Assembly (NCBI RefSeq): GCF_036971445.1
Contig: NC_091470.1
Coordinates: 180,172,001-180,236,000 of the forward strand
DNA from: Narcine bancroftii
Lineage: Eukaryota
DNA: 64,000 nt
Reading direction: 5' to 3'
Positions within the stretch are counted from its first letter, which is position 1, and every line of letters starts with the position of its first letter. The position numbers and the translations under genes are program-made. The notes below the pieces were generated by a model. That model ran no database searches. It was not told the DNA's origin and worked only from the letters and a program-made list of their open reading frames with translations. Below are positions 8,046 through 61,735 of this stretch, piece after piece.

Positions 8046-8579
8046 AATGCAAGCATGCTTTTTCCACTTTGGTTCAAGTTTGTAGGTCAATTGGGTGTAA
8101 TTTGGCAGCACGGGCTCGTGAGCCAAAAGGGCTTGTTTCCGTAATGTATGTCTAAATTTTTAAGAAATGTAATTTATATTTAAGACTTTGTAGACAATTA
8201 CTTGATGTCTTGGAGTGTAGTTTCAACAGGTGTACTGTACAGGCATCCTGGCCTGTTGCATCACTCTCTGATAGGTGCCTAGCGGGCACAGATTTCATTC
8301 CATCAAGGACATCCCTATGCCCTCTTCAACACTGCTATGATCAGGAAGGAGATACAGGAGCCTGAAGATGAGCCCTCATGTTCATAACAATAAATCTGAT
8401 TAATTCCTGGCTTGTGTTTTCAATCGCTGATTAATTTAATGACTTCTTTTTCACCCAAATCCTGTCTATTTTAGCACCTGCCACGAACTGCAATTTTTCT
8501 TAGATATAAATCTTGTTCATTGTGGGCTTAATTGTGAATTTGAGCTGTACAGATCAACAAACATTTCGTGGCAATCAAG

Positions 8580-8717
8580 GGCACTTCCGGATAGAAAACG
8601 GCGCCAATTTCTCCTGGGGCGCTATTCGCGAGCGGCCAATCCGGCCAGAACCGGCCGATCACGCGAGCGACCTCGACCCGGACGATGGGGATGGGGATGG
8701 GGATGGGGGGGGGGGGG

Positions 8718-8763
<46 letters not shown>

Positions 8764-8833
8764 ACTCTGACAGCGAGCCAATAGGCAGCGAGCGCCGGCT
8801 GATCCCTGATTAGCATACGGGCAGGCATATAAA
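8580..8833 (+). promoter_or_regulatory. H2B promoter
   Basis: CCAAT at 8604, 8636, 8778; octamer variant ATTAGCAT at 8809-8816 (canonical H2B ATTTGCAT); TATAAA at 8828-8833; CTTCCGG ETS-like site at ~8584. Confidence 0.8.
8684..8762 (+). repeat. Compound microsatellite (GATGGG)4-G16-(AG)21
   Basis: Read directly; lies between CCAAT boxes of the H2B promoter. Confidence 0.95.
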
Positions 8834-8860
8834 GGCGAGCCGACGGGACAGTCAGCAAAG

Positions 8861-9244
8861 ATGCCCGAGAGCGCGGCGAAGAGGATCACCAAGAAAGGGG
8901 TGAAGAAGGCGGCGTCCAAGGTGCCCTCGCAGGGGGAAAAGAAATGGCGGCGGCGGCGGGGCCGGCGGGAGAGCTACGGTATCTACGTGTACAAAGTGCT
9001 GAAGCAGGTGCACCCGGACACGGGCATTTCGTCTAAGGCCATGAGCATCATGAATTCCTTCGTCAACGACGTCTTTGACCGCATCGCTTGCGAGGCGTCG
9101 CGTCTGGCCCAGTACAGCCGGCGGCATACGCTGTCGTCGCGGGAGATCCAGACGGCCGTGCGGCTGCTGGTGCCCGGGGAGCTGGCTAAGCACGCTGTGT
9201 CCGAGGGCACCAAGGCGGTCACCAAGTACACCAGCTCCAAGTGA
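8861..9244 (+). CDS. H2B: Histone H2B, divergent variant (intronless)
   Basis: 127-aa ORF with H2B fold ([20 protein letters not shown]...[17 protein letters not shown]), promoter elements and 3' stem-loop. Confidence 0.97.
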
Positions 9245-9288
9245 AGGGTCCCATCCAGCCCCCAGCTCCTTCCTACTCGCTGTACAAC

Positions 9289-9329
9289 GGCTCTTTTCAG
9301 GGCCAACTCCACATGCTCAGCTCGGAGCT
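9289..9329 (+). promoter_or_regulatory. Histone 3' stem-loop and weak downstream element (H2B)
   Basis: GGCTCTTTTCAGGGCC at 9289-9304 (one G.U pair); CGGAGCT ~18 nt downstream. Confidence 0.85.
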
Positions 9330-10099
9330 TGGCTCCCTTTCCCCACCCCCCTGTCCCTGTATCGCTACTGGGTAAGAACCATAAGACGTCCAGTCGCCTC
9401 CATGATGTCTGGGTCAGACCATTTGCTCCTGCTTTAAATCTGGATCAACTAATTTGCATGTAATTAACGTGCACAGCCCAGACTTTAAATGCCAGCACTT
9501 TATACACCACCCCCTCATTTCAGGGCACCATAAAGTGGGCTTCACAGGGGGTGGTGAAGGGTTCACTCATGTCACATGAATGTTCTTTAACTTTGGTCCA
9601 CCCTGAGGCTGCCTCTTGGTCCAGCACCCCTCATGGAACCCTACAGCACCAGGCAGTCTCCCCTCCAAGTACTGACCAGTCCTGAGCCTGAGATCAGATT
9701 ATTGTGAACATAATTGCTTCCATAGATAAGAGAGCGGGTCTGGCTTCGAAGCTTTTGATCACCTTTGTAGTTGCCATTTTTCAACATGACCAGGGTTGTG
9801 CCGATGAACGTCCAAGAAGGCATTAGGGGGCCGGAAAAAACAAGTAGGAGACACCATCCATCAGTTTGGATCATTGTTAAGAACGAATGGCTCAGTAATT
9901 ACAAAGGGACCAATATTCAACTTTTGGTGGCAGAAGAATTCTCCTCATGAATTCTAACAGATCAGAAACACTCTTCAGGAGGCAAGTGTGACTACTAATG
10001 CCTGCAGAAGACATCAAATTTAAAACTGGAGCACAGGGGGAAATAAAGGGGGGGGGATGTCTTTTTTCCAAACATTATGGAGGGAGGGCACTGTGGAAG

Positions 10100-11160
10100 C
10101 AGAACTAGGCCATTTGGCCCATTTAGTCTGCCCTGCATTAAATCATGAGCAGATTTAATTCCCTAATCAACCCCTCTCTCTGGCCTTCTCCCCATAACCT
10201 TTGATGCCCTGGCTAAACAAGAACACATCAATCTCTGCCTTAAATACGCCCAATGACCCGGCCTCCACAACCGCTTGAGGCAACAAATCACACAGATTCA
10301 CTGCCCTCTGGCTGAAGAAATTCCTCTGTTCTAAGTGGACTCCCTTCACTCCTGAAGTTGTGCCCTCTTGACTTAGACTCTCCCACCATGGGAAGCAACC
10401 TATTCTGTCCACGCCTTTCAACGTTTGAAATGTTTCAATGAGAATTCCCCCTCATTCTCCTAAATTCCAGTGAGTCCAGGCCAAGGGCCGTCAAATGCTC
10501 CTCATACAATAACCCTTTCATTCCCGGAATCCTCCTTGTGAACCTCCTCTGAACCCTCTCCAACATCAGCTCATCCTTTCTTAAACAAGGAGCCCAGAAC
10601 TGATCCTAATTCTCCACGTGAGGTCTCCCCAGGACCTTGTAAAGCCTCAACATCACATCCCTGCTCTTAGATTCTATTCCTCTTGAAATGAACACCAAAT
10701 TTGCATTTGCCTTCTTCACCACCGACCCAACCTGCAAGTTCACCTTCAGGGTATAAGAGCAGGGATGTGATGATGAGGCTTAAGAAGGCCTCACTCGGAG
10801 AACAGGGTACAGTTTTGGGCTCCTCATTTAAGAAAGGATGTGCTGGTGTTGGAGAGGGTTCAAAGAATGATTCCTGGGATAAAAGGATTAGAATATGAGG
10901 AACATTTGATGGCTCTTGCACTGTACTCCTTGATTTTGAGATGGGAGGGAGACCTCATAGGAGTGTTTTGAATGTTGAAAGGTGTGGACCGTAGATGGAG
11001 AAAGGAGTGGAGGGTAAGAGGGCTAAACATCAGGATTTAAAACAGATGTGGAGGGATCAGCAGGGAAAAGAATCTCAGGGTTTTAAGTGGTTATGTTTGT
11101 ACTCTGACAATAAATCTATATCCAACTCGACGGGCCAAATGGCCTACATCTACTCCTATG
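10100..11160. mobile_element. Two oppositely oriented CR1 3' fragments between H2B and H3
   Basis: RNFFSQRAVNL and GVFKAEID on minus (~10100-10750); decayed CR1 on plus (~10750-11160). Confidence 0.75.
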
Positions 11161-11209: not shown

Positions 11210-11896
<687 letters not shown>

Positions 11897-11926: not shown

Positions 11927-11967
11927 GGCTCTTTTCAGAGCCACTGACCTTGCCTGCGAAGGAGCTG
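11927..11967 (+). promoter_or_regulatory. Histone 3' stem-loop and downstream element (H3)
   Basis: AAA-GGCTCTTTTCAGAGCC-AC at 11927-11942; GAAGGAGCTG at 11958-11967. Confidence 0.92.
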
Positions 11968-12264
11968 CAGTCACCCCATTGAGGTGTTACATGCAGAGGT
12001 CATTCAGCTTGTCCTCTGTCCTACATCACCAGCCGATCCACTCTGCCTGGACCTTTCCAATTTCGATGCCACTGGCTTGTGAGACCACAAAGCCTTGTAT
12101 ATGCCCAATAACCTGGCCTCTGCGGCTGCCAACTAGAGGTTCATTGACCCACGTACTAGAGGAGTTGCAGGGAAGAAACTTTGCCACAGCTACTCTGTCC
12201 AGGGCCCTCATTGTGGTAATTGCTTCTACAAGGTTCTCAATCTGAGCTCAAAGGAACAAAAGCA

Positions 12265-13718: not shown

Positions 13719-14804
13719 CTGCGGGACGAGGAGGGTCAAGGGTACAGGGAGGTGGTTCCTTCTCCTTGGGTGAAATCTTGGTCTAATTTGAAACAAAGGC
13801 CCAGTTACCCTGAAAGGGAAGGATGAAATACAGATCAGACAAATCCCCATAGAGTATATTCTGGCACTGCAGAGGCCCTTCGGCCCACAAATTTGTTTCG
13901 ACCTATGTAAACCTACTCAACGTTCTAACCTGTCCCCCCCCTCCCTCACACCCATAACCCTCTATTTTTTATGACAACTGTCTCGGAGTCTTTTGAATGT
14001 CCCTGTTGACCCAGCCTCCACCACCCCTGTGGAGGCCAGGTCGTTGTGTGCATTTAAGGGATTGATGGGTATCTGAATAGTCGGGTCTCAAAGGCTATTG
14101 GGAGCGGGGCAGGGTTGGAGGATGGATCAGCTCACAATGGAATGGTGGGGCGGACTCGTTGGGCCAAATGGCCAACTTCTGCTCCCATATCTTGGGGGGG
14201 GAGGGTTGACTGGTGAGCCGCATGCGGTTCTTTGATTTTAAGAGCTCCTGACTGGAATCTTGCCCAGGATCCAGCCTCCCACTGACCAGAGCTCCGGATG
14301 CCCTGACCGCAGGCTCTCACCCGTGTCCTGGCCGCCCGCCATTTGAGCTCCAACACTACAATGATGCAGGTACTTATTGCGGTCAAAAGTAGTGTGTTAA
14401 TAGTTGACCCCTTAAATTTTAGTCTAAAAATTGGTCCACAAAATTCGACTATTACACGCATATATACAGTGTGTGTACTTTTGATTATTGAAATTAATAC
14501 AAATCAGCAGTTTAAACATGAATAAATATTATTATGTACACGTATTTCTGTATAAGAATGTGTGTAATATTTGGTTGTATTTTGTAGCTTTCAAATGCCT
14601 GAAGTTCATCATGTGTGGCTCTTATGTTGAACAAGTTTGGCCGCACCCAGCTTGTGGTCGACACATGAGAGCCACCATGTTGACCTAGGATCTGCCCCAA
14701 TGGTTCTTCTCCCTCACTGGGACTAACCCATCCCTGAATCCATCTCCCCAACTCCGGCCCAGCGGAGGGGTGCAAAGGGGGGATGGGGTAACGCACACCC
14801 TTGC

Positions 14805-15164
14805 CTGCGTAACAGACGAAAGGGAACTTGAAGTCGCACGGCGTGTCCTTCCATTGGCCGCTGACCACGATGACACAGACCGACATGGCGGTGAAGTCCA
14901 TGGGGTAAAACTGGTCCCAGTAGGAGAAGCTGAACTCATTCCCATTGGACCATGCCCAGCTGCGCTCCGACTGATGCCTGTTGAACAGGCCGATCCACGC
15001 GGGCGAGTCGCTCTGTAACACCTTCGCCACTTGGGCATTCTCTTCCAGCGAAGCAATGCTAGCCAGATCCGTGTGCTCTGCGCGGCAATAGTTTTGGGCG
15101 TCGTTCCATGTCTTCTCGCTCTTAACAAAGATGTAATCCTTTGAGTTGGTCTCGGGGATGGACT
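14805..15164 (-). CDS. Lectin gene CTLD exon E (intact, 360 nt, phase 1/1)
   Basis: KTWNDAQNYCR..HTDLASI..WIGL..WAWSNG..W..C..WKDTPC..FPFVCY; acceptor cttcccacAG; donor is GC type (CAG|GCAAG). Confidence 0.88.
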
Positions 15165-15289
15165 CTGTGGGAAGGCGGGGAGGGGGGAAATCTGAAACAA
15201 GACACCCAACGAAATGCCACAATGAGTTTATTGTCATACACGGGGTGCAATGTACTTATGCAGCGGAATTACATTACAGCATAACAAAC

Positions 15290-21615: not shown

Positions 21616-21967
21616 CTGTGTAGCAAATGAAGGGCAGTAGGAATTGGCAGGGAGCGTCGATCCAGCGGCTTTCCTCCACGTAAACGCAGTCAGCGAGAGG
21701 AGGCCGTAGTGGTGAGGTTGTCCGGCTTTCCAGCGTGTTTAGGAGGCAGAGCTGCCATCAGACCATCCCCAGCCGTCCACTGACTGCCACTCGTTGTACA
21801 GGCCGCACCAGGCCTGCCCAAGCTGATGGTACAGGGGGCTGGTTGCGTTGTTCTCCCGCTCACTCCAGAAGCTGAGCAGGTCGGTGTGGTGTGCCCAGCA
21901 GTAGTCGCGGGCCTCGGGCCACCTTCTCTCCTCATTGACTGTGTGGTACAGCCTCCTGAGTTCACCG
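21616..21967 (-). pseudogene. Lectin gene CTLD exon D (disabled)
   Basis: RRWPEARDYC..HTDLLS..WCGLY..WGWSDG, then TAA (21739-21741), a frameshift before DCVYVEESRWIDAPCQFLLPFICYT, acceptor shifted by 1 nt; donor CAG|GTAAC intact. Confidence 0.85.
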
Positions 21968-23654
21968 CTTTGGGATAGGCAAACACAGGACCTTTTGATT
22001 TTTTGGGTGTCCTTTATGCGCAGTGGACGGTCCTTGTCCTGCTCTGGCTGGGCCTCATTGGCCTGCATCTGAATTGATGCACTTGCGCCCATACGTCCTC
22101 CCTCCCTTTCGGCGTGGATCACGGAAAGTCACATAACCCCTACCATTCGGAATGTGGATTGTGGAGAGTCATGTGAACTCTCTGTCCTGAACCCGGTCGG
22201 AAGTCACCTCACTTGCCAATCACAGGTTAGATCTGCCCACCTGAGGCTGATGCATGATTGACCCTTGCAGTGGACGTGTTATCGGTCCTCTGGTTGTCAG
22301 GCGGTAGATCTGACCACAGGTGAGGCTGATGTGTGATTGATCACATGCATGCATTGAAGAGCCAGGCATGGAGCCTGCTTGTCCCCTTTTGCCATTGCCC
22401 TGAGAGTCCACATTGCCGGCCACAGACAGATACCGGGGGGCCAACTGGGATGCGACATCCCAGATCCAGACTCATGGTCGATGCTGGAGACCAGATTCAT
22501 TACACTTGCCAGTTGTAATTAATTTACTGTTTATTAGTGTGCTGTGACCATGAGAGACAGTGAGGGTTGGTGGGTATTGAGTGTTCATCCCTTGATACAC
22601 AATTGGGAGTCGAGAAGGTTTAGCAGAGATTTATTTGCACCTGATGTGTAATTATTTGAGTATTATTGGCCTGCGTGAGTGTGAGCCCCTGTTCATAAAT
22701 AAAATCCACTGTTTGTTGATGGTCTCGTGCATGGCCAGACTGAGACCACCCGCAAATTGAAGGAACAACATCTTATCTTCACTGGGCCCCCTGCAACCGG
22801 ATGGCATTAACATGGACTTCTCTGGCTTCTTTAAACCCCCCCCAACTCAATTCTTTCGCCCACCCCCCTCCCCCCAGTTCTGTCCCTCTCCCTTTCAGAC
22901 AGACATAATCAATTCTTTCCTCTCCCCTTATCATATCCAGTTAACCCTGTTTGTTGGTCAAGACTCCTCCCCCCCACTGGCCAGCACTGTGTCTATCCTG
23001 GAATTTTTTTGCTTTTTCCTTGAGGAAGGGCTCAGGCGCGAAACGTCGGCAATGTATCTTTGTCTCCTATGGATGCTGAAAAGACCAGCTGAATCCTTCC
23101 AGCATTTCAGTCGGTGTTTTTTCTGCAGTCACAGCATCTAATTCCACCCCAATCAACCCGTTCCAGATTCCCACTACTCTGTGCAATGTAACTCACCCCC
23201 ACCTTAAATATTCCCACACACCCACCCTGGAGGGCAGAATTCTGACCGCCTCTCCTAATCCCAGATGTGGAACAAGCCACCAGCGGAGGTGGCGGACGCG
23301 GGTTCGACTTGGACTGGTGCATGGATGGGAAGGCTGTGGTCCTGGAGCAGGTCAGCAGGACTCGGCACAGACTAGATGGGCCGAAGGGCTTGAGTGAAAA
23401 GGCAGCAGTGGAGGGGGGAAAGGGATCACAGTGTCTGTGTTTCACTCCAAACTCAGGCACCTTCCTGCTTTTTTTGCTTCTACCTTTGAGGAAGGGCTCA
23501 GGCCCGAACCGTCAGTAACGTATCTTTACCTCCTATGGATGCTGCGAGACCGACTGAGTTCCCCCAGCATCTCTCTGTGTTTTTATTACAATCACAGCAT
23601 CTGCGGATGTTTGTGTTTCACTACAGTTTCTTTCTCTTAGTTGCTTGTTCAACC

Positions 23655-26478: not shown

Positions 26479-27806
26479 CTGTTGAGTTACAAAGGATCCC
26501 AGAGCTCTCGTTAGTCAGTGGGTTTATTATCATACACATGGTATAATGTACAGATGCACCAAAATTCTTACTGCTGCAACCCAATGGGTACTTTGTAAAA
26601 AACCAATAGTTTATATTTGATATATACAATACGATATATTCATCGATCCGGGTTCGAATCTGGCGCTGTCCGTGACCTACATGGGTTTCCTCCCACGTTC
26701 CAAATGAGTGTTTGCAAAACACCGAATTTCATGACTTGTTCATGACAGTAAATTCTCATCCTGACTTAGTTGGTTAATTGGTCACGTGAGTGGAATTGGG
26801 TGGCACAGGGTCATGGGCTGGATGGGCCGGATACTATCCTGCTCTTCAACGTTTAAATACTAAAGTCATAAACATTCAATTAAAAAGAGCAGATAAATAC
26901 CAAAGGTGATATTCAACAGTGCAAGAAAAATGGCATCTGTTCTCGTTGCTGCCATCAGGAAAGAAGTCTTGGGGCCACGAGACTTGCACCACCAGGTTCA
27001 GGAACAGCTGCTCCCCCTCCACCCTCAAACTCTATCAGGGACTCATTTAAGTATTCTTACTTGACATAGAACATTGCAGCCCAGTTCAGGCTCTTTGGCC
27101 GACAATGTCATCGAGTTTATTGGCACTCGACTGCACAAGTACAGCCCAACGAAACAGCGTTCTCCGGTCCTCGGTGAAAAACACGCAGACACACAACCAG
27201 ATATAGCACACACATGTACAGACAAACAGTACATGTGCAGGACAAGTATTCATATATGCAAATAAATATTGTTTCATGAAGAAGGACAGTGTGAGAAGTT
27301 CCTTTGGTTGTTCTCACTGCCCGTGGGAAGAAGCTGTTCCTCGGCCTCGTGATACTGGGTCTGATCCTCCTGTATCTCTTCCCTGAAGGAAGCAGCTGAA
27401 AGATGCTGTGTGCAGGGTGGAAGGGATCCTCAATGATTTTGCACACGCTCTTCAGAAATCGATAGATCATGTTGATGGGGGTGGGGGAGGAGGGAAACTC
27501 CAGTGATCCTCTTTGCCACTCTTATGGTCCTGTGGATTGACCCATGGTCCTGTGGATTCACCCCTGATCCATATCTATACAAACCTACTCGACAAACTCT
27601 GGTGCTGTCGAATGGTTGACCAATCCTCTCTGCAGGCTAAGACATCTCCTCAACTCCTGGCATTATTACAATCTGGAGATCTCTTTTTTCCAAGACCCTC
27701 AATAGTTTGGGTCTTGTTGAATGGTTGAGCTCCTGCTCCTCTCTCAAAGGACATTGGATGAATTTTGGAGTCAGCGGGAGGCAGGTGCCCGGGGAATTTT
27801 TATTAC

Positions 27807-28163
27807 CTTGGTAACAAATGAAGGGGAACGGGAAGTCGCAGTCGGTCTCGTGCCACTCCGCGTCAAAGACAGCCACGCACAGGGGCAAGCTGCTGTTGAG
27901 GTGGTAGGGGTGCCACAGCCCCCACTTGGAGAAGCCGAAGGGGTCGCCGTTGGTCCACGCCCAGCCGGAGATCCCATCGGTGTAAAGCCCGATCCACCCC
28001 GGCCCGCTTGCCAGCTGGGAGACGGCGCTGGCCTCCTCCGCGTTGCGCACGCTGGCCAGGTTGGTGTAATGGTTACGGCAGTAGCTCCAAGCCTTGGTCC
28101 ACAACTTTTCCTCCTCAATCAGGAAGAATGTCCGGTCCCCGCTCACCATGCTCTGGTTTCCAC
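27807..28163 (-). CDS. Lectin gene CTLD exon C (intact, 357 nt, phase 1/1)
   Basis: KLWTKAWSYCRNHYTNLASV..WIGLY..WAWTNG..W..C..WHETDC..FPFICY; acceptor tttagtgtAG, donor AAG|GTAATA. Confidence 0.88.
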
Positions 28164-28169
28164 CTACAC

Positions 28170-28390
28170 TAAATTTAAAATTTAAATTTAGACATACAGC
28201 ATGATAACAGGCCCACGAGCTCGAGCCACCTTTGAACGGTGGAAGGGAACTGGAGGCCCCAGGGAAATCCCACACAGACTCCGGAAGAGCGTCAAACTCC
28301 TTACAGATAGCGACGGGATTCTAACCCCATTTCTGATCATTGTTACTGTAACAGCATTGCGCTAACCGCTACGACAACCTTGCCGGCCGA
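28170..28390 (-). mobile_element. tRNA-derived V-SINE (HE1-like)
   Basis: CTGTAAGGAGTTTG..GTGTGGGATTTCC..GTTCCCTTCCAC V-domain-like core and TGTCTAAATTTAAA tail. Other copies at ~26645, ~31330, ~39895, ~49630, ~54410, ~55640, ~62290. Confidence 0.7.
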
Positions 28391-31599: not shown

Positions 31600-32100
31600 A
31601 TGGCGGTGTTTCGTTTAAAATCCTGCGACTGCGGGGTCTGTGCCCAAGATGGCGGCACCTGTGTTCAGCAACATCCGTGATGGGTTGATGGCTCGGGGGG
31701 GGGAGCAGTGCAAGGCACCAGTAATGGGGAGAACACCGCCCCCCACCCCGTGGAGGAGCAGAAGCAGGGGAGATGGCCCCTACAGAGATGATGTGACCGC
31801 GGCGGCTGGACCAACAAGGGGCTCAGTGGCTGAGAGGGACCCGCAAGGTATGCGGGTGACCTGAGGTCAGGGGACCGGCTCATGGGAACCAGAGTCTGGA
31901 ATTGGGGCTCGGGAGGGCATAGAGGATAAGAAGGGGCTCCCAAAGGGCCTCGGGCACTGAAGCCTTCCTGATCGTGTCGGAGGCTTGGATCTGGTGGTCA
32001 ACGGATCAAATGGGAATCTGTGCCAGCTGCAGAGACCACGGGAGAACGTTTTGTGTAATATTACATGTTCTGCACCATTACACGATAATAAGGGGATCTT
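31600..32100 (+). mobile_element. Short interspersed element with CAAGATGGCGGC head (related copy ~55930-56600)
   Basis: CTGCGGGGTCTG..CCCAAGATGGCGGC.CCTG 5' end and GACAAT.AA/GATCTTG-type 3' end shared between copies. Confidence 0.55.
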
Positions 32101-32132
32101 GCTCATTGGCGTACTTTTGGTAGTTGGCATAT

Positions 32133-32505
32133 CTGTGTAACAGATGAAGGGCAGTGGAATCTCGCACTGAGTGTCGACCCATCGATCACTGTCAATGTAC
32201 ACGCAGCTGGGAACGGTGGTGCTGACTTGTTGGGCCTTCCAAGGCACCCAGTTGGCATCACTGAACCCCTCTCCCGTCGTCCACCTCCACCCAGCCGTGG
32301 ACCAGTCGTTGCCATATAGTCCAATCCACAGCCACGTGCCTCCAATCACGAGGCGAGCCACAGCCTCCCACTCCTTGCGGCTCAGCAGGCAGGCAAGGTC
32401 TGTGTACCTGTTTCGACAGTAGTCCCGCGCCTCTGGCCAACTCCTCTGCTCTTTGATCAGGTGATAGCCCCCCCCCCACTGACAGTTTCATGGCATGGGA
32501 CAAGC
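32133..32505 (-). pseudogene. Lectin gene CTLD exon A (+1 frameshift in G10 run; expected donor reads AT)
   Basis: YHLIKEQRSWPEARDYCRNRYTDLA..WIGLY..WRWTTG..W..CVYIDSDRWVDTQCEIPLPFICYT. Length 373 nt (3n+1). C10 at 32468-32477 on plus. May be an assembly error rather than a true lesion. Confidence 0.8.
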
Positions 32506-49070: not shown

Positions 49071-50704
49071 TCCTTTGCGGCTGCTTCTTCCGTTCCGCTG
49101 GCGAGCGAGCCCTCCTCTGAGCTCCTACCCTTCAAAACGTGTCCTCCACCAGCTCCCACCTTGACCAACATTTTACAGGAGCACAGTTGAGAGCGTCCTG
49201 GATGGTAGCTGCAAAGCGTCGGACTGGACGTCAGTGCAGAGGATCGTCAAAAGGTCGAGAAGATCAGTTGGGTCTCCATTTCCTCTGTAGACGAGATTTA
49301 GAACATAGAACACCTCTGCACAGTACAGGCTCTTCAGCCCTCGATGTTGTGCCAACCCATATATTCCTTACAAAATGTACTGAACCCTCCCCACCCCGTA
49401 ACCCTCTATTTTTCTTCCACTCGTGGGCCTGTCTAAGAGTCTCTTAAATGCCCTTAATATTTCAGCCCCCACCACCACCCCATTTACCGGAAGTGTTGTG
49501 TGTAAATGGGGCTCAGGTAATTATTGAAATCCCTTTCCATCCACGACGCAGGATTTTTGACTCTCCCCCACCAGGAAGGAAATGGGGGAGCATCAAAATC
49601 ACGGCTGTCATAACACAACGTGTTAATTTAATTTTTAATATTGGCACGGTCACAAGCCCTTCCGGTCCGTGAGCCCAAGCGTCCCCGATTAACCTACCAA
49701 CCCTATACGTTTTGAAGGGTGGGAGGAAACCGGAGGAAGCCCACGCAGGACACAAACTCCTTGCAGACCATGCCAGATTTGAGTGGGGTAACAGTGTTGC
49801 GCTGACCGCACCTTTGGTGTCTGGTTCGCACTGACTTGGGCACGGTTTGGTGCAGCGATGGAGTGTGGGTTTGCTAAATTGGCTGTCGGGCCTGTTTCCG
49901 TGCTGTCTGGCTCATCTCTGCATCTGGACAGGCAGGCCTGAAACATCGGCGATGTATCTTTGTCTCCTATGGACTCTGAAAGACCGGCTGAGTTCCTCCA
50001 GCATTTCAATGTGCTTTTACTACAATCACAGTGGTTGCAGACGTCTGTGTTTCATTTGCGTCTATACACCACGTCTGGGTCATCATTACAGCCACACGGT
50101 GGTGGATTTACCAATAGCCATACCTTGGGCAGTGAGATGGGGTGTGGGCACCTCACCAACCCACACACTCGTCCGACATCGTGGATACCCCGCGGGACGT
50201 GACTTGGGGGAGGGGGGAGGTTCCCGGGGAATACCTGGGCAAATCCTCGCTTGCTGGGCCCAGGGTGCCAGCAGCGAGAGCGTCCTTCTGGCCTTGGTCG
50301 TCGGATCCCAACCAGCTCCCCCGCCTGGCCCCACTAATCCCCTGATTTGCACGTGGGCTTGCCGATTTTCCGCCACGTGCTGGTGCCAGCCATCCATGAG
50401 AACGGCGCAGGGGAGGAATTTAATGCCTGTCACTTCCCACAGCTCGCTCTGGAACCTGCCAGGTGTTGGGCAGTAGACCAAGCTCTGGAGGGATGCCCAG
50501 CCATCTCCATGTGATCCGTGTGTAGGCAGGGGAAGGGGAGGGAAGGTGAAGAGAGGGGAGGACACTTGGTTCTGTCACTTCTGCTGGAGAGAGAGCGTGG
50601 GACTGATAGTTGCACGCACACTCACCCACAGACATACACGCACACACCCACAGACACGCGCACCCACAGACATGACAGATACCCACACACGCACACCCAA
50701 AGAC

Positions 50705-52123
50705 GCCGCAGCCCCCCGCCGAGCCGCAGCCCCCCGCCGAGCCGCAGCCCCCCGCCGAGCCGCAGCCCCCCGCCGAGCCGCAGCCCCCCGCCGAGCCGCA
50801 GCCCCCCGCCGAGCCGCAGCCCCCCGCCGAGCCGCAGCCCCCCGCCGAGCCGCAGCCCCCCGCCGAGCCGCAGCCCCCCGCCGAGCCGCAGCCCCCCGCC
50901 GAGCCGCAGCCCCCCGCCGAGCCGCAGCCCCCCGCCGAGCCGCAGCCCCCCGCCGAGCCGCAGCCCCCCGCCGAGCCGCAGCCCCCCGCCGAGCCGCAGC
51001 CCCCCGCCGAGCCGCAGCCCCCCGCCGAGCCGCAGCCCCCCGCCGAGCCGCAGCCCCCCGCCGAGCCGCAGCCCCCCGCCGAGCCGCAGCCCCCCGCCGA
51101 GCCGCAGCCCCCCGCCGAGCCGCAGCCCCCCGCCGAGCCGCAGCCCCCCGCCGAGCCGCAGCCCCCCGCCGAGCCGCAGCCCCCCGCCGAGCCGCAGCCC
51201 CCCGCCGAGCCGCAGCCCCCCGCCGAGCCGCAGCCCCCCGCCGAGCCGCAGCCCCCCGCCGAGCCGCAGCCCCCCGCCGAGCCGCAGCCCCCCGCCGAGC
51301 CGCAGCCCCCCGCCGAGCCGCAGCCCCCCGCCGAGCCGCAGCCCCCCGCCGAGCCGCAGCCCCCCGCCGAGCCGCAGCCCCCCGCCGAGCCGCAGCCCCC
51401 CGCCGAGCCGCAGCCCCCCGCCGAGCCGCAGCCCCCCGCCGAGCCGCAGCCCCCCGCCGAGCCGCAGCCCCCCGCCGAGCCGCAGCCCCCCGCCGAGCCG
51501 CAGCCCCCCGCCGAGCCGCAGCCCCCCGCCGAGCCGCAGCCCCCCGCCGAGCCGCAGCCCCCCGCCGAGCCGCAGCCCCCCGCCGAGCCGCAGCCCCCCG
51601 CCGAGCCGCAGCCCCCCGCCGAGCCGCAGCCCCCCGCCGAGCCGCAGCCCCCCGCCGAGCCGCAGCCCCCCGCCGAGCCGCAGCCCCCCGCCGAGCCGCA
51701 GCCCCCCGCCGAGCCGCAGCCCCCCGCCGAGCCGCAGCCCCCCGCCGAGCCGCAGCCCCCCGCCGAGCCGCAGCCCCCCGCCGAGCCGCAGCCCCCCGCC
51801 GAGCCGCAGCCCCCCGCCGAGCCGCAGCCCCCCGCCGAGCCGCAGCCCCCCGCCGAGCCGCAGCCCCCCGCCGAGCCGCAGCCCCCCGCCGAGCCGCAGC
51901 CCCCCGCCGAGCCGCAGCCCCCCGCCGAGCCGCAGCCCCCCGCCGAGCCGCAGCCCCCCGCCGAGCCGCAGCCCCCCGCCGAGCCGCAGCCCCCCGCCGA
52001 GCCGCAGCCCCCCGCCGAGCCGCAGCCCCCCGCCGAGCCGCAGCCCCCCGCCGAGCCGCAGCCCCCCGCCGAGCCGCAGCCCCCCGCCGAGCCGCAGCCC
52101 CCCGCCGAGCCGCAGCCCCCCGC
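50705..52123 (+). repeat. Perfect 18-bp GC-rich minisatellite (GCCGCAGCCCCCCGCCGA) x ~79
   Basis: Uninterrupted identical units flanked on both sides by CA-rich simple sequence. Confidence 0.98.
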
Positions 52124-52377
52124 AGACATCACAGACACCCACATTGATACGCGCACAGACACACATACGTGCATAGACAGACACAGGCATGCACAGATGC
52201 ATGTCCACACAGAGGATCGCACAGACACTTTTTGCAGTCAAGAGTCTTCTTCTGCCTCTCAGTAAACAAACGTGCTGGAGAAACCCAGCAGGTCAGGCAG
52301 CATCCCTGGGAAGTAAAGGGGAAGCAACGTTTCGGTCCTGGGCCCTCCATAAAGGTGCGAGCAAAGAGCAGAGGCAG

Positions 52378-59137: not shown

Positions 59138-60665
59138 TTTTTTAAATTTTTTATTTTTCACACCATAAATCACATTAGCCATGATATACACTATTTCTTT
59201 TTCACACATATACAGTGACTTTTTCTCCCCCCCCTCCCTCCTCCCAAGCCACCCCCCCACCCCCCCCCTCTCATCCATTTTAGGTATACAATCTAGGTTG
59301 CATTAAGCCAGTCAGACAATGTTGTCATTCAACAAAAATACACCAGAAATTCTACTGAGTCCATTCTTTTCTTTCCTTCTCTTTCCATCAACTTAGGTAA
59401 TGTTTGTCCCCGGTAGGTTTTCGCTATTGTATTTAATGTAAGGCTCCCATACTTGTTCGAATATTTCAATATTATTTCTTAACCTATATGTTATTTTTTC
59501 TAATGGAATACATTTATTCATTTAAATTTAGTAGTTTCTTCCTTTTAATTTGGTTATGTATTCCATTAATATTTAAAGTCATATAGTTCAGCGTAGCCCT
59601 TTTATATTTTGTTTATCTTCTCTTTCCGTTTTTCCATCATTACCTTTCCTCCTTTTCCATTTCTGTTTTCTTATTTTCAACTCTTTATAAGACAACATTC
59701 CTACAACATCCAACATTTTCCTTATTCTCCTATTTCTATCTTATTTATCCCCAATCTCCCCTTCCCCTCCTGAGTTGTCCTTTATCCCTTGTCGGACAAC
59801 CACATCTCCCCTCTCCATTTGGATTTGCGAATCCACTCGCAAGCGTCAACTGATTTTGCAGTGACCGCTATTTCCCCCCACCCCGCCCCCCCAGAAAAGA
59901 TTTCACTTTTCATATGTCACAAAGGTCACTCTTTTAATTCCCTCCTTATTCTCTCTATTCCATTACCTTCCCTTATTAATTCTTGTCTATACTATCTATA
60001 TTTTCCTCTAAGTACAGATACATTCACGTATGCACATTGTCTCTATTCACTCTTATACCTCTTTACCCGCATACATATCAATCGTGATCATTTTTACTCT
60101 CATTACCTGTTTTCATCCCTCAGTCTATTTTTGTCTTTACCCACATACATATCAATCGTGATCATTTTTACTCTCATTACCCGTCTTCCTCCCTCAGTCT
60201 ATTTTTGTAATTGTTCAGCAAATTTTCGTGCTTCTTCTGGATCCGAGAATAGTCTGTTTTGTTGTCCTGGAATAAATATTTTCAATACCGCTGGATGCTT
60301 TAGTATAAATTTATACCCTTTATTCCATAAAATCGCCTTTGCTGTATTGAACTCTTTTCTCTTCTTTAGGAGTTCAAAACTTATATCTGGATAAATGAAG
60401 ATTTTTTGCCCTTTATACTCCAGTGGTTTGTTGCCCTCTCTTACTTTTTCCATTGTCTTCTCCAGTACCTTTTCTCTTGTAGTATATCTTAGGAATTTTA
60501 CTACAATAGATCTTGGTTTTTGTTGTGGTTGTGGTTTAGAGGCCAATACTCTATGTGCCCTTTCTATTTCCATTTCTTGCTGTAGTTCTGGACATCTTAG
60601 GGTCTTAGGGATCCACTCTTTTATAAATTCCCTCATATTCTTGCCTTCTTCATCTTCCTTAAGGC
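59138..60665 (-). mobile_element. 5'-truncated L1-clade element: ORF1 C-half + ORF2 with internal deletion + A-rich tail
   Basis: ORF1 motifs EIERAHR, PRSIVVKFLRY, KIFIYPDISFELLKKRKEF (stop at 60199). ORF2 start ATLNYMTLNINGIHNQIKRKK (59523-59600) abuts ORF2 end LEKITY..FEQVWEPYI (59393-59521). Confidence 0.88.
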
Positions 60666-60666
60666 T

Positions 60667-61438
60667 GGGGGCCGCGACTTGGAGGGGGCCGCGACTTGGA
60701 GGGGGCCGCGACTTGGAGGGGGCCGCGACTTGGAGGGGGCCGCGACTTGGAGGGGGCCGCGACTTGGAGGGGGCCGCGACTTGGAGGGGGCCGCGACTTG
60801 GAGGGGGCCGCGACTTGGAGGGGGCCGCGACTTGGAGGGGGCCGCGACTTGGAGGGGGCCGCGACTTGGAGGGGGCCGCGACTTGGAGGGGGCCGCGACT
60901 TGGAGGGGGCCGCGACTTGGAGGGGGCCGCGACTTGGAGGGGGCCGCGACTTGGAGGGGGCCGCGACTTGGAGGGGGCCGCGACTTGGAGGGGGCCGCGA
61001 CTTGGAGGGGGCCGCGACTTGGAGGGGGCCGCGACTTGGAGGGGGCCGCGACTTGGAGGGGGCCGCGACTTGGAGGGGGCCGCGACTTGGAGGGGGCCGC
61101 GACTTGGAGGGGGCCGCGACTTGGAGGGGGCCGCGACTTGGAGGGGGCCGCGACTTGGAGGGGGCCGCGACTTGGAGGGGGCCGCGACTTGGAGGGGGCC
61201 GCGACTTGGAGGGGGCCGCGACTTGGAGGGGGCCGCGACTTGGAGGGGGCCGCGACTTGGAGGGGGCCGCGACTTGGAGGGGGCCGCGACTTGGAGGGGG
61301 CCGCGACTTGGAGGGGGCCGCGACTTGGAGGGGGCCGCGACTTGGAGGGGGCCGCGACTTGGAGGGGGCCGCGACTTGGAGGGGGCCGCGACTTGGAGGG
61401 GGCCGCGACTTGGAGGGGGCGCGCGACTTGAAAGGGGC
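60667..61438 (+). repeat. 17-bp minisatellite, right part (GGGGGCCGCGACTTGGA x ~44)
   Basis: Identical units to 61414, then a terminal variant GCGACTTGAAAGGGGC. Confidence 0.97.
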
Positions 61439-61464
61439 TAATGACCCACCCCGCCTTCGTAGAT

Positions 61465-61735
61465 TAAAGTATTGAGTATTGGAGTTGGGATGATATGGTG
61501 AAGTTGTATAAGGCATTTGTGAGGCCAAATGTGGAGTACTGTGTGCAGTTTTGGTCACCGAACCATATCAATAAGATGGAACGAGCACAGAGAAGATTTA
61601 CTCAGATGTTGCCCAGACTTCAGGAACTGAGTTACAGGGAAAGGTTAAACTTTATTCCCTGGAGCGTAGAAGAATGAGGGGTGATATGACGGAGGTCTGC
61701 ACATTTAAAATGGGTAGAGACAGAGTAAATGTGAT
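61465..61735 (+). mobile_element. CR1 3' fragment
   Basis: LYKAFVRPNVEYCVQFWSP..QRRFTQMLP. Confidence 0.8.

Follow-up and report, generated by a model that had tools for sequence, protein, structure and literature searches.

The ray Narcine bancroftii carries an intact, single-copy histone H2B gene belonging to a distinct class of H2B proteins, which we call class A, that is found in sharks and rays and is separate from the variant H2B.K. The gene lies in a 64,000-nucleotide stretch of DNA (the window, C5:180172001–180236000 of the 3.3-Gb genome). An earlier reading of this stretch, made without database searches (the sequence-only reading), had described it as a divergent H2B with an H2B.K-like fold. 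We propose, with a probability of about one half, that class A is a stem-loop germline variant comparable to mammalian TH2B that arose independently, probably takes the place of ordinary H2B in germ cells and would, by prediction, loosen the nucleosome. Features of the gene, its surroundings and related loci are collected in Table 1 and described below.

Table 1. Histone features in the window (window positions) and elsewhere on contig C5 (C5 coordinates)
Feature	Position	Strand	Details
H2B-type promoter	8778..8833	+	CCAAT 8778, octamer-like ATTAGCAT 8809, TATA 8828
Class A H2B reading frame	8861..9244	+	intronless, 127 aa, no stops; Pfam Histone match
H2B histone 3' stem-loop	9289..9304	+	44 nt past stop; one U-G pair
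Likely H2B downstream element (U7 site), shortish	9322..9331	+	pairing energy -8.2 kcal/mol
H3 variant promoter	11401..11438	+	CCAAT 11401, TATA-like 11432
Variant H3 reading frame	11486..11896	+	L65M, I74V, L100V, I119V, I124V, Q125H
H3 variant stem-loop and strong downstream element	11927..11968	+	stem-loop 11927–11942; element 11959–11968
Cluster H4 variant	C5:181.83–182.01 Mb		T54V, A69S
Cluster H2A variant	C5:181.83–182.01 Mb		90% identity; V30I, N38H, A40S, V43I, V87I
Cluster H2B variant (L025)	C5:181.83–182.01 Mb		sister class, long tail
Cluster Arg-rich H1-like genes	C5:181.83–182.01 Mb		49 Arg, 26 Lys in 245 aa; protamine-like
H2B.K exon 1	C5:372112033–372111917	-	
H2B.K exon 2	C5:372103547–372103311	-	first seen as a weaker H2B genome match

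A solitary H2B gene with a replication-coupled structure

The sequence-only reading took the reading frame, promoter and stem-loop to be intact, and all of them are present. The gene has the CCAAT box, octamer, TATA box, stem-loop and downstream element of a replication-coupled H2B. Its promoter elements follow the same order as those of the clustered H2B genes of this genome, most of which spell the octamer-like element identically, and the region upstream is CpG-rich (observed/expected ratio of 0.95 over 8560–8860). The 3' hairpin has a folding energy of -8.4 kcal/mol (z -2.9), and its spelling recurs in two of 50 cluster stem-loops. The downstream element scored under all 50 histone flanks of the genome on a matrix built from those flanks. 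However, its pairing energy, for which the guide was the complement of a consensus derived from the same genome's histone flanks, is inside their range, 18 of the 50 being weaker or equal. We considered a degenerate U7 site driving read-through and dropped it, because the pairing energy is normal despite the low matrix score. AATAAA signals occur at 10042 and 11109, the nearest about 800 nucleotides beyond the H2B stop.

The multi-copy, clustered arrangement and near-invariant fold of replication-coupled H2B genes are not seen here. Among 48 genome matches to H2B, from 64 candidates scored, the gene occurs as a single copy, the next best being 80% identical, and its promoter-plus-tail DNA has one genome match. 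It stands alone, outside the main histone clusters on C11, C15 and C17. Over codons 34–125, its fold differs from those of 26 paralogues in the genome with a dN/dS of 0.06–0.14 and a dS of 0.70–1.70 (30 H2B loci were fetched; the gene itself, one locus with stops, one partial locus and one with a deletion were omitted). Six canonical H2B pairs of the same genome have a dS of 0.24–0.49. The high dS and low dN/dS indicate an old, constrained gene and not a recent, drifting copy, and a dN/dS far below 1, the ratio that the sequence-only reading had proposed to examine, points to a real, selected variant.

The surroundings are rich in mobile and repeated DNA. Domain exons of C-type lectins lie on the minus strand directly downstream of the H2B gene and a neighboring H3 gene (14515–15255, 21742–22128, 27640–28320 and 31870–32487), long GC-rich tandem arrays with repetitive open frames on both strands occupy 50672–52147 and 60659–61516, and three loci upstream of the window (L074, L079 and L080) hold LTR-retroelement and retrovirus-like gag and pol frames. 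Among the 145 of 728 unmasked frames that were scanned, no plus-strand host gene was found, and the frames recognized were of retroelements and the minus-strand lectin exons. Elsewhere on the contig, another solitary H2B gene, with a canonical fold (L012, C5:103072717–103073076, minus strand), has its stem-loop one nucleotide past the stop and almost lacks a downstream element.

Class A in sharks and rays

Homologues were taken from the best 120 of 6,781 matches (7,992 candidates scored), and the clusters of those matches added further proteins. Among the best 120, shark and ray proteins rank first if models with a doubled domain are disregarded. The class A signature includes G38, V69, D71, C75, S84, R85, H87 and V102 (numbering follows a PDB-derived human-type H2B, P0006). 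Of 252 H2B-like proteins fetched, 21 carry seven to nine of nine signature residues, and the next best score is four. Besides the window protein, they comprise 20 proteins, drawn from 19 named species of sharks and rays, the orthologues that the sequence-only reading had called for, and V102 is confined to exactly these 21 among the 252. The species include sevengill, sawshark, lamniforms, carcharhiniforms, orectolobiforms, horn shark, sawfish, stingrays, devil ray and skates. Database names of the proteins are generic ('H2B 7-like', 'late H2B.L4-like' and similar). Ten sharks are identical over the 91 fold residues, and 78 of the 91 positions are invariant in 20 class A members. The gene structure, intronless with a stem-loop, was checked in the N. 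bancroftii genome alone.

That the gene is a stray canonical copy, its constraint relaxed and without a role of its own, is scarcely credible. Its place off the main clusters, amid repeats and lectin exons, and the additional private changes that rays carry would suit such a copy, but the class-specific residues are fixed in 19 other species, the fold is invariant in ten of them, the dN/dS is low and both promoter and stem-loop are intact.

The fold changes listed by the sequence-only reading (R34, G38, S60, V69, D71, C75, Q82, S84, R85, H87, L89, S90 and V102) were all found, as was the retained K120, although their meaning differs. S60 and S90 are no marks of a variant, because they are the ordinary state in N. 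bancroftii, present in all seven clustered-type H2B proteins tabulated. Neither Q82 nor L89 occurs in any of the 19 orthologue rows, 18 of which have M89; both are private to this ray, as are two additional tail residues that include a Trp. Position 84 is Ser or Thr in 19 of 19 orthologue rows and Ser in the window protein, and two skate orthologues keep E71, for which D71 is a conservative replacement. The protein differs from canonical H2B of its own genome at 13–14 fold positions. Its tail, described earlier as Arg-rich, is mildly so, with six Arg against three to five in seven canonical-type H2B proteins of the genome, but the net charge is equal at +18 and the tail is of the canonical and not the short H2B.K type.

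A second H2B class, class B, is represented by seven shark and sawfish proteins in our tree; it has V61, I81 and mostly C75, and changes faster than class A. Proteins of this sister class (P0049, P0053 and P0267–P0272) also carry T97 and often Cys75 and Cys124. To judge from matching chromosome-length values, classes A and B appear to lie on one chromosome in three cases: sawfish, zebra shark and a record of a bamboo or epaulette shark. The chimaera lineage split off about 400 million years ago. In Data S3 of PMC8857922, an elephant-shark row labeled plainly 'H2B' shows, by eye, both the class A residues G38, V69, D71 and C75 and the class B residues V61, I62, I81 and Q87. This mixture suggests that the A/B lineage is older than the chimaera split. 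None of the bony-vertebrate proteins among the 252 screened has the class signature; a relative that has diverged further might escape this screen, since the chimaera relative is likewise absent from the homologue matches listed.

Class A is not H2B.K

N. bancroftii has an H2B.K gene of its own (loci L031 and L063) on the minus strand at C5:372103311–372112033. Its two exons are separated by a GT-AG intron of 8,369 nucleotides at the KQ|VHP position in the histone fold, and an AATAAA signal lies 23 nucleotides past the stop, with no stem-loop. Its best matches are shark and ray proteins and the coelacanth and teleost 'H2B type 2-K1'. The same strand carries an exon of the ABCF family 360 kb upstream, at C5:372.47 Mb; its best PDB match is yeast Arb1, the yeast ABCF2 orthologue, and we call the exon ABCF2-type. 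No ABCF-family match was found near the window. Human H2BK1 is located downstream of ABCF2 (PMC9526256), and in H2B.K genes an intron interrupts the fold and a poly(A) signal is present (PMC8857922). The coelacanth and zebrafish proteins read identically to the H2B.K rows in the supplement to PMC8857922.

Since the genome contains this separate gene, orthology of the window gene to H2B.K is excluded. The window gene has neither the fold intron, nor a poly(A) signal in place of a stem-loop, nor the position downstream of ABCF2, and it falls outside the H2B.K clade. We built a tree from 47 distinct folds over 91 columns, with no sea-urchin H2B and no mammalian H2B.1 among them. Its H2B.K clade, including the N. 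bancroftii, fish and coelacanth proteins, is supported at 99/96. Class A forms its own clade at 97/88, apart from the canonical H2B proteins, among which the sequence-only reading had asked whether the gene would nest, and in the best tree joins classes B and C at 98/85 and not H2B.K.

The sequence-only reading had offered two origins, a relative of H2B.K with ancestral gene structure or a convergent variant; the second fits the present results and the first is not supported. It is very unlikely that class A is an H2B.K relative, whether sister paralogue or retrocopy, that kept or regained an intronless stem-loop structure and serves in oocytes or at cleavage stages. V69 is common to both, N. 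bancroftii adds Q82 and L89, mammals have intronless retrocopies of H2B.K (PMC8857922), and an AU test of class A joined with H2B.K, over 91 columns, does not reject the join (p 0.206). The fold is short, and on it a deep sister relation of the two classes is unsupported but not rejected. Yet I41, T90 and V94 are present in every one of the 16 H2B.K rows and T75 in 15, and none of these residues occurs in the window protein; the class A fold is 13–17 differences from H2B.K, no closer than the 11–14 that separate it from canonical H2B; its tail is canonical; and a canonical promoter and stem-loop would not come with a retrocopy. The 'H2B.K-like' signature described earlier is for the most part a human one: it leans on C75, which occurs in one of 14 H2B.K rows (human) read in Data S1 of PMC8857922, and on Q82 and L89, which the class A orthologues lack.

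Proteins matching the ray's H2B.K also occur in horn, basking, white, zebra and whale sharks and in three rays. In PMC8857922, H2B.K is reported back to bony fishes, and the elephant shark was probed solely for H2B.K. Its presence in sharks and rays would move its origin from bony to jawed vertebrates. One record that clusters with shark H2B.K, P0275, is labeled Salmonella and is probably a contaminant or mislabeled.

Neighboring histone variants

The variant H3 gene lies 2.2 kb downstream of the H2B gene on the same strand. Its six changes are conservative, four of them to Val, and comparison with 16 clustered H3 genes gives a dN/dS of 0.02–0.04. At C5:182.006 Mb there is a broken copy with the same six changes and 94% DNA identity. 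A homologue search gave canonical-level matches among those listed, the best with 95% identity over residues 60–136 (40 of 6,284 cluster members were read); it is uninformative on conservation, because orthologues would merge with canonical H3. In the window and the 100 kb upstream (164 kb), we found no further histone genes beyond this H3, and a tblastn search of the same region with the genome's own H2A found no H2A near the H2B gene.

A divergent cluster of stem-loop histone genes (loci L091, L086, L084, L089 and L088) lies 1.65 Mb from the window H2B and includes variant H2A, H2B and H4 genes, the broken copy of the H3 variant and Arg-rich H1-like genes (Table 1). Because of this distance, co-use of the H2B-H3 module with the cluster is not implied. 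Several of the cluster genes have a weak downstream element, or AATAAA soon after the stem-loop.

Evidence for transcription

The H2B gene is likely transcribed. Four sequencing runs of one study and organism, which we presume to be RNA, contain 0.68–0.86 of 57 words sampled from 8800–9330; 20 other runs contain 0.07–0.09. RNA extending from just past the TATA box to the stem-loop would give a share of about 0.85, which is consistent with these values and no proof. The contigs show presence and not level. No contig covers 9245–9469, which carries no weight. Between the H2B and H3 genes, at 10484–10959, contigs of all four runs differ from the genome by A>G changes only (9, 3, 8 and 12 places), as would arise from edited plus-strand RNA. 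This is a weak hint of read-through, since the stretch is repeat-rich and some contigs may derive from other copies. The text of a catshark study, PMC13052469, makes no mention of H2B.

Possible function of class A

Class A probably originated by duplication of a replication-coupled H2B before the split of sharks and rays, and probably before that of chimaeras, and the duplicate would then have left the main clusters. Changes appear to have been fixed in two patches, helix 2 facing H4 (V69, D71 and C75) and loop 2 (S84, R85, H87 and M89 or L89); the remaining fixed changes are at positions 38 and 102, and K120 is kept. We predict that these changes loosen H2B-H4 and H2B-DNA contacts, as in mammalian TH2B. 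In human TSH2B, Ser85 loses the contact of Asn84 with H4 Arg78, a water-bridged bond (PMC3976059); dimer exchange in vitro increases when D68, F70 or E71 is mutated (PMC10657182); and loop 2 is a DNA-binding loop (PMC8857922). From these observations we infer a modestly looser nucleosome. An mRNA ending at the stem-loop would tie synthesis to DNA replication, perhaps in the spermatogonial or premeiotic S phase; alternatively, such mRNA may be stored in oocytes in a stem-loop-dependent manner. Candidate partners are the H3 variant next to it and, 1.65 Mb away, the divergent H2A and H4.

The five widespread mammalian H2B variants are all expressed in the germline, and H2B.1 keeps its stem-loop (PMC8857922). 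Together with the protamine-like H1 genes of the divergent cluster, this leads us to the roughly even probability given above for germline use. We saw no sign in the present analysis of cleavage-stage use specifically. Several observations argue against a germline role. The four runs of one study all match, and if they represent four tissues, most would be somatic. The fold evolves very slowly, unlike that of most male-germline variants and of class B, and there is no sperm-type tail, tail length being normal in the orthologues and net charge canonical. E71D is conservative and absent from two skates, and Arg-rich H1 proteins are a mark of nucleated red cells also.

A real though lesser possibility, which we retain on account of the slow evolution, the presence in all four samples and the Arg-rich H1/H5 of red cells (PMC11607694), is that class A is somatic, either a minor replication-coupled subtype of dividing cells or a variant of terminally differentiated cells, nucleated erythrocytes for example, possibly with partly polyadenylated read-through RNA. 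Blood would be in every tissue sample, the A>G contigs in four of four runs hint weakly at read-through, and the two AATAAA signals could serve polyadenylation. However, the contigs speak to presence and not amount, those between the genes may come from other copies of repeats, and the downstream element is in the normal range. S84 and the company of a fast-changing H2B and protamine-like H1 genes suit germ cells better.

If the germline reading is extended to the neighboring variants, cartilaginous fishes may over some 400 million years have maintained a complete alternative germline nucleosome, used before protamine exchange. It would consist of stem-loop variants of H2A, H2B (three classes), H3 and H4 with Arg-rich linker histones in one region, and would have evolved independently of the mammalian TH2A/TH2B/H3.4/H1t set. 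We regard this larger proposal as doubtful.

Relationship to known H2B variants

The closest parallel to class A is H2B.1 (TH2B or TSH2B, the product of H2BC1), which is likewise intronless, carries a terminal stem-loop and has few fixed fold changes, among them Asn84 replaced by Ser and an altered Gly75 (PMC3976059, PMC8857922). In contrast to H2B.1, class A has more fixed fold changes (G38, V69, D71, C75, R85, H87, M89 and V102), and no H2A partner accompanies the gene in the window or the 100 kb upstream, whereas H2B.1 is arranged head-to-head with H2A.1 (PMC8685415). Since H2B.1 arose in mammals (PMC8857922), the likeness is probably convergent. With H2B.K, class A shares V69 and changes around loop 2, joined by Q82 and L89 in N. 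bancroftii only, but the window gene is intronless with a stem-loop where H2B.K has a fold intron, a poly(A) signal and a position downstream of ABCF2. Canonical H2B genes of the same genome resemble it in promoter layout, stem-loop, lack of introns, tail type, net charge and K120; it is unlike them in its 13–14 fold differences, its distance from all 26 paralogues (dS 0.7–1.7) and its solitary position. The sea-urchin rows in the PMC8857922 supplement, of cleavage-stage and sperm H2B, share G38 and V69. However, those rows are without D71, C75, S84, H87 and V102, and class A is without their repeat-extended tail.

We found no prior description of class A in the literature searched, which was mostly outside subscription papers such as the dogfish histone biochemistry of the 1980s. 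Term searches of PMC13396413 and PMC11742582 brought up nothing concerning sharks.

Vertebrate H2B variants have been cataloged almost only from mammals, and H2B.K was until now the one old class. Class A is a second, extending across sharks and rays, and it has both a sister class and a relative in a chimaera. At Ser84 it shows the same change that weakens the H2B-H4 contact in human TSH2B, so that catshark or skate would allow a direct test of convergence in germline chromatin.
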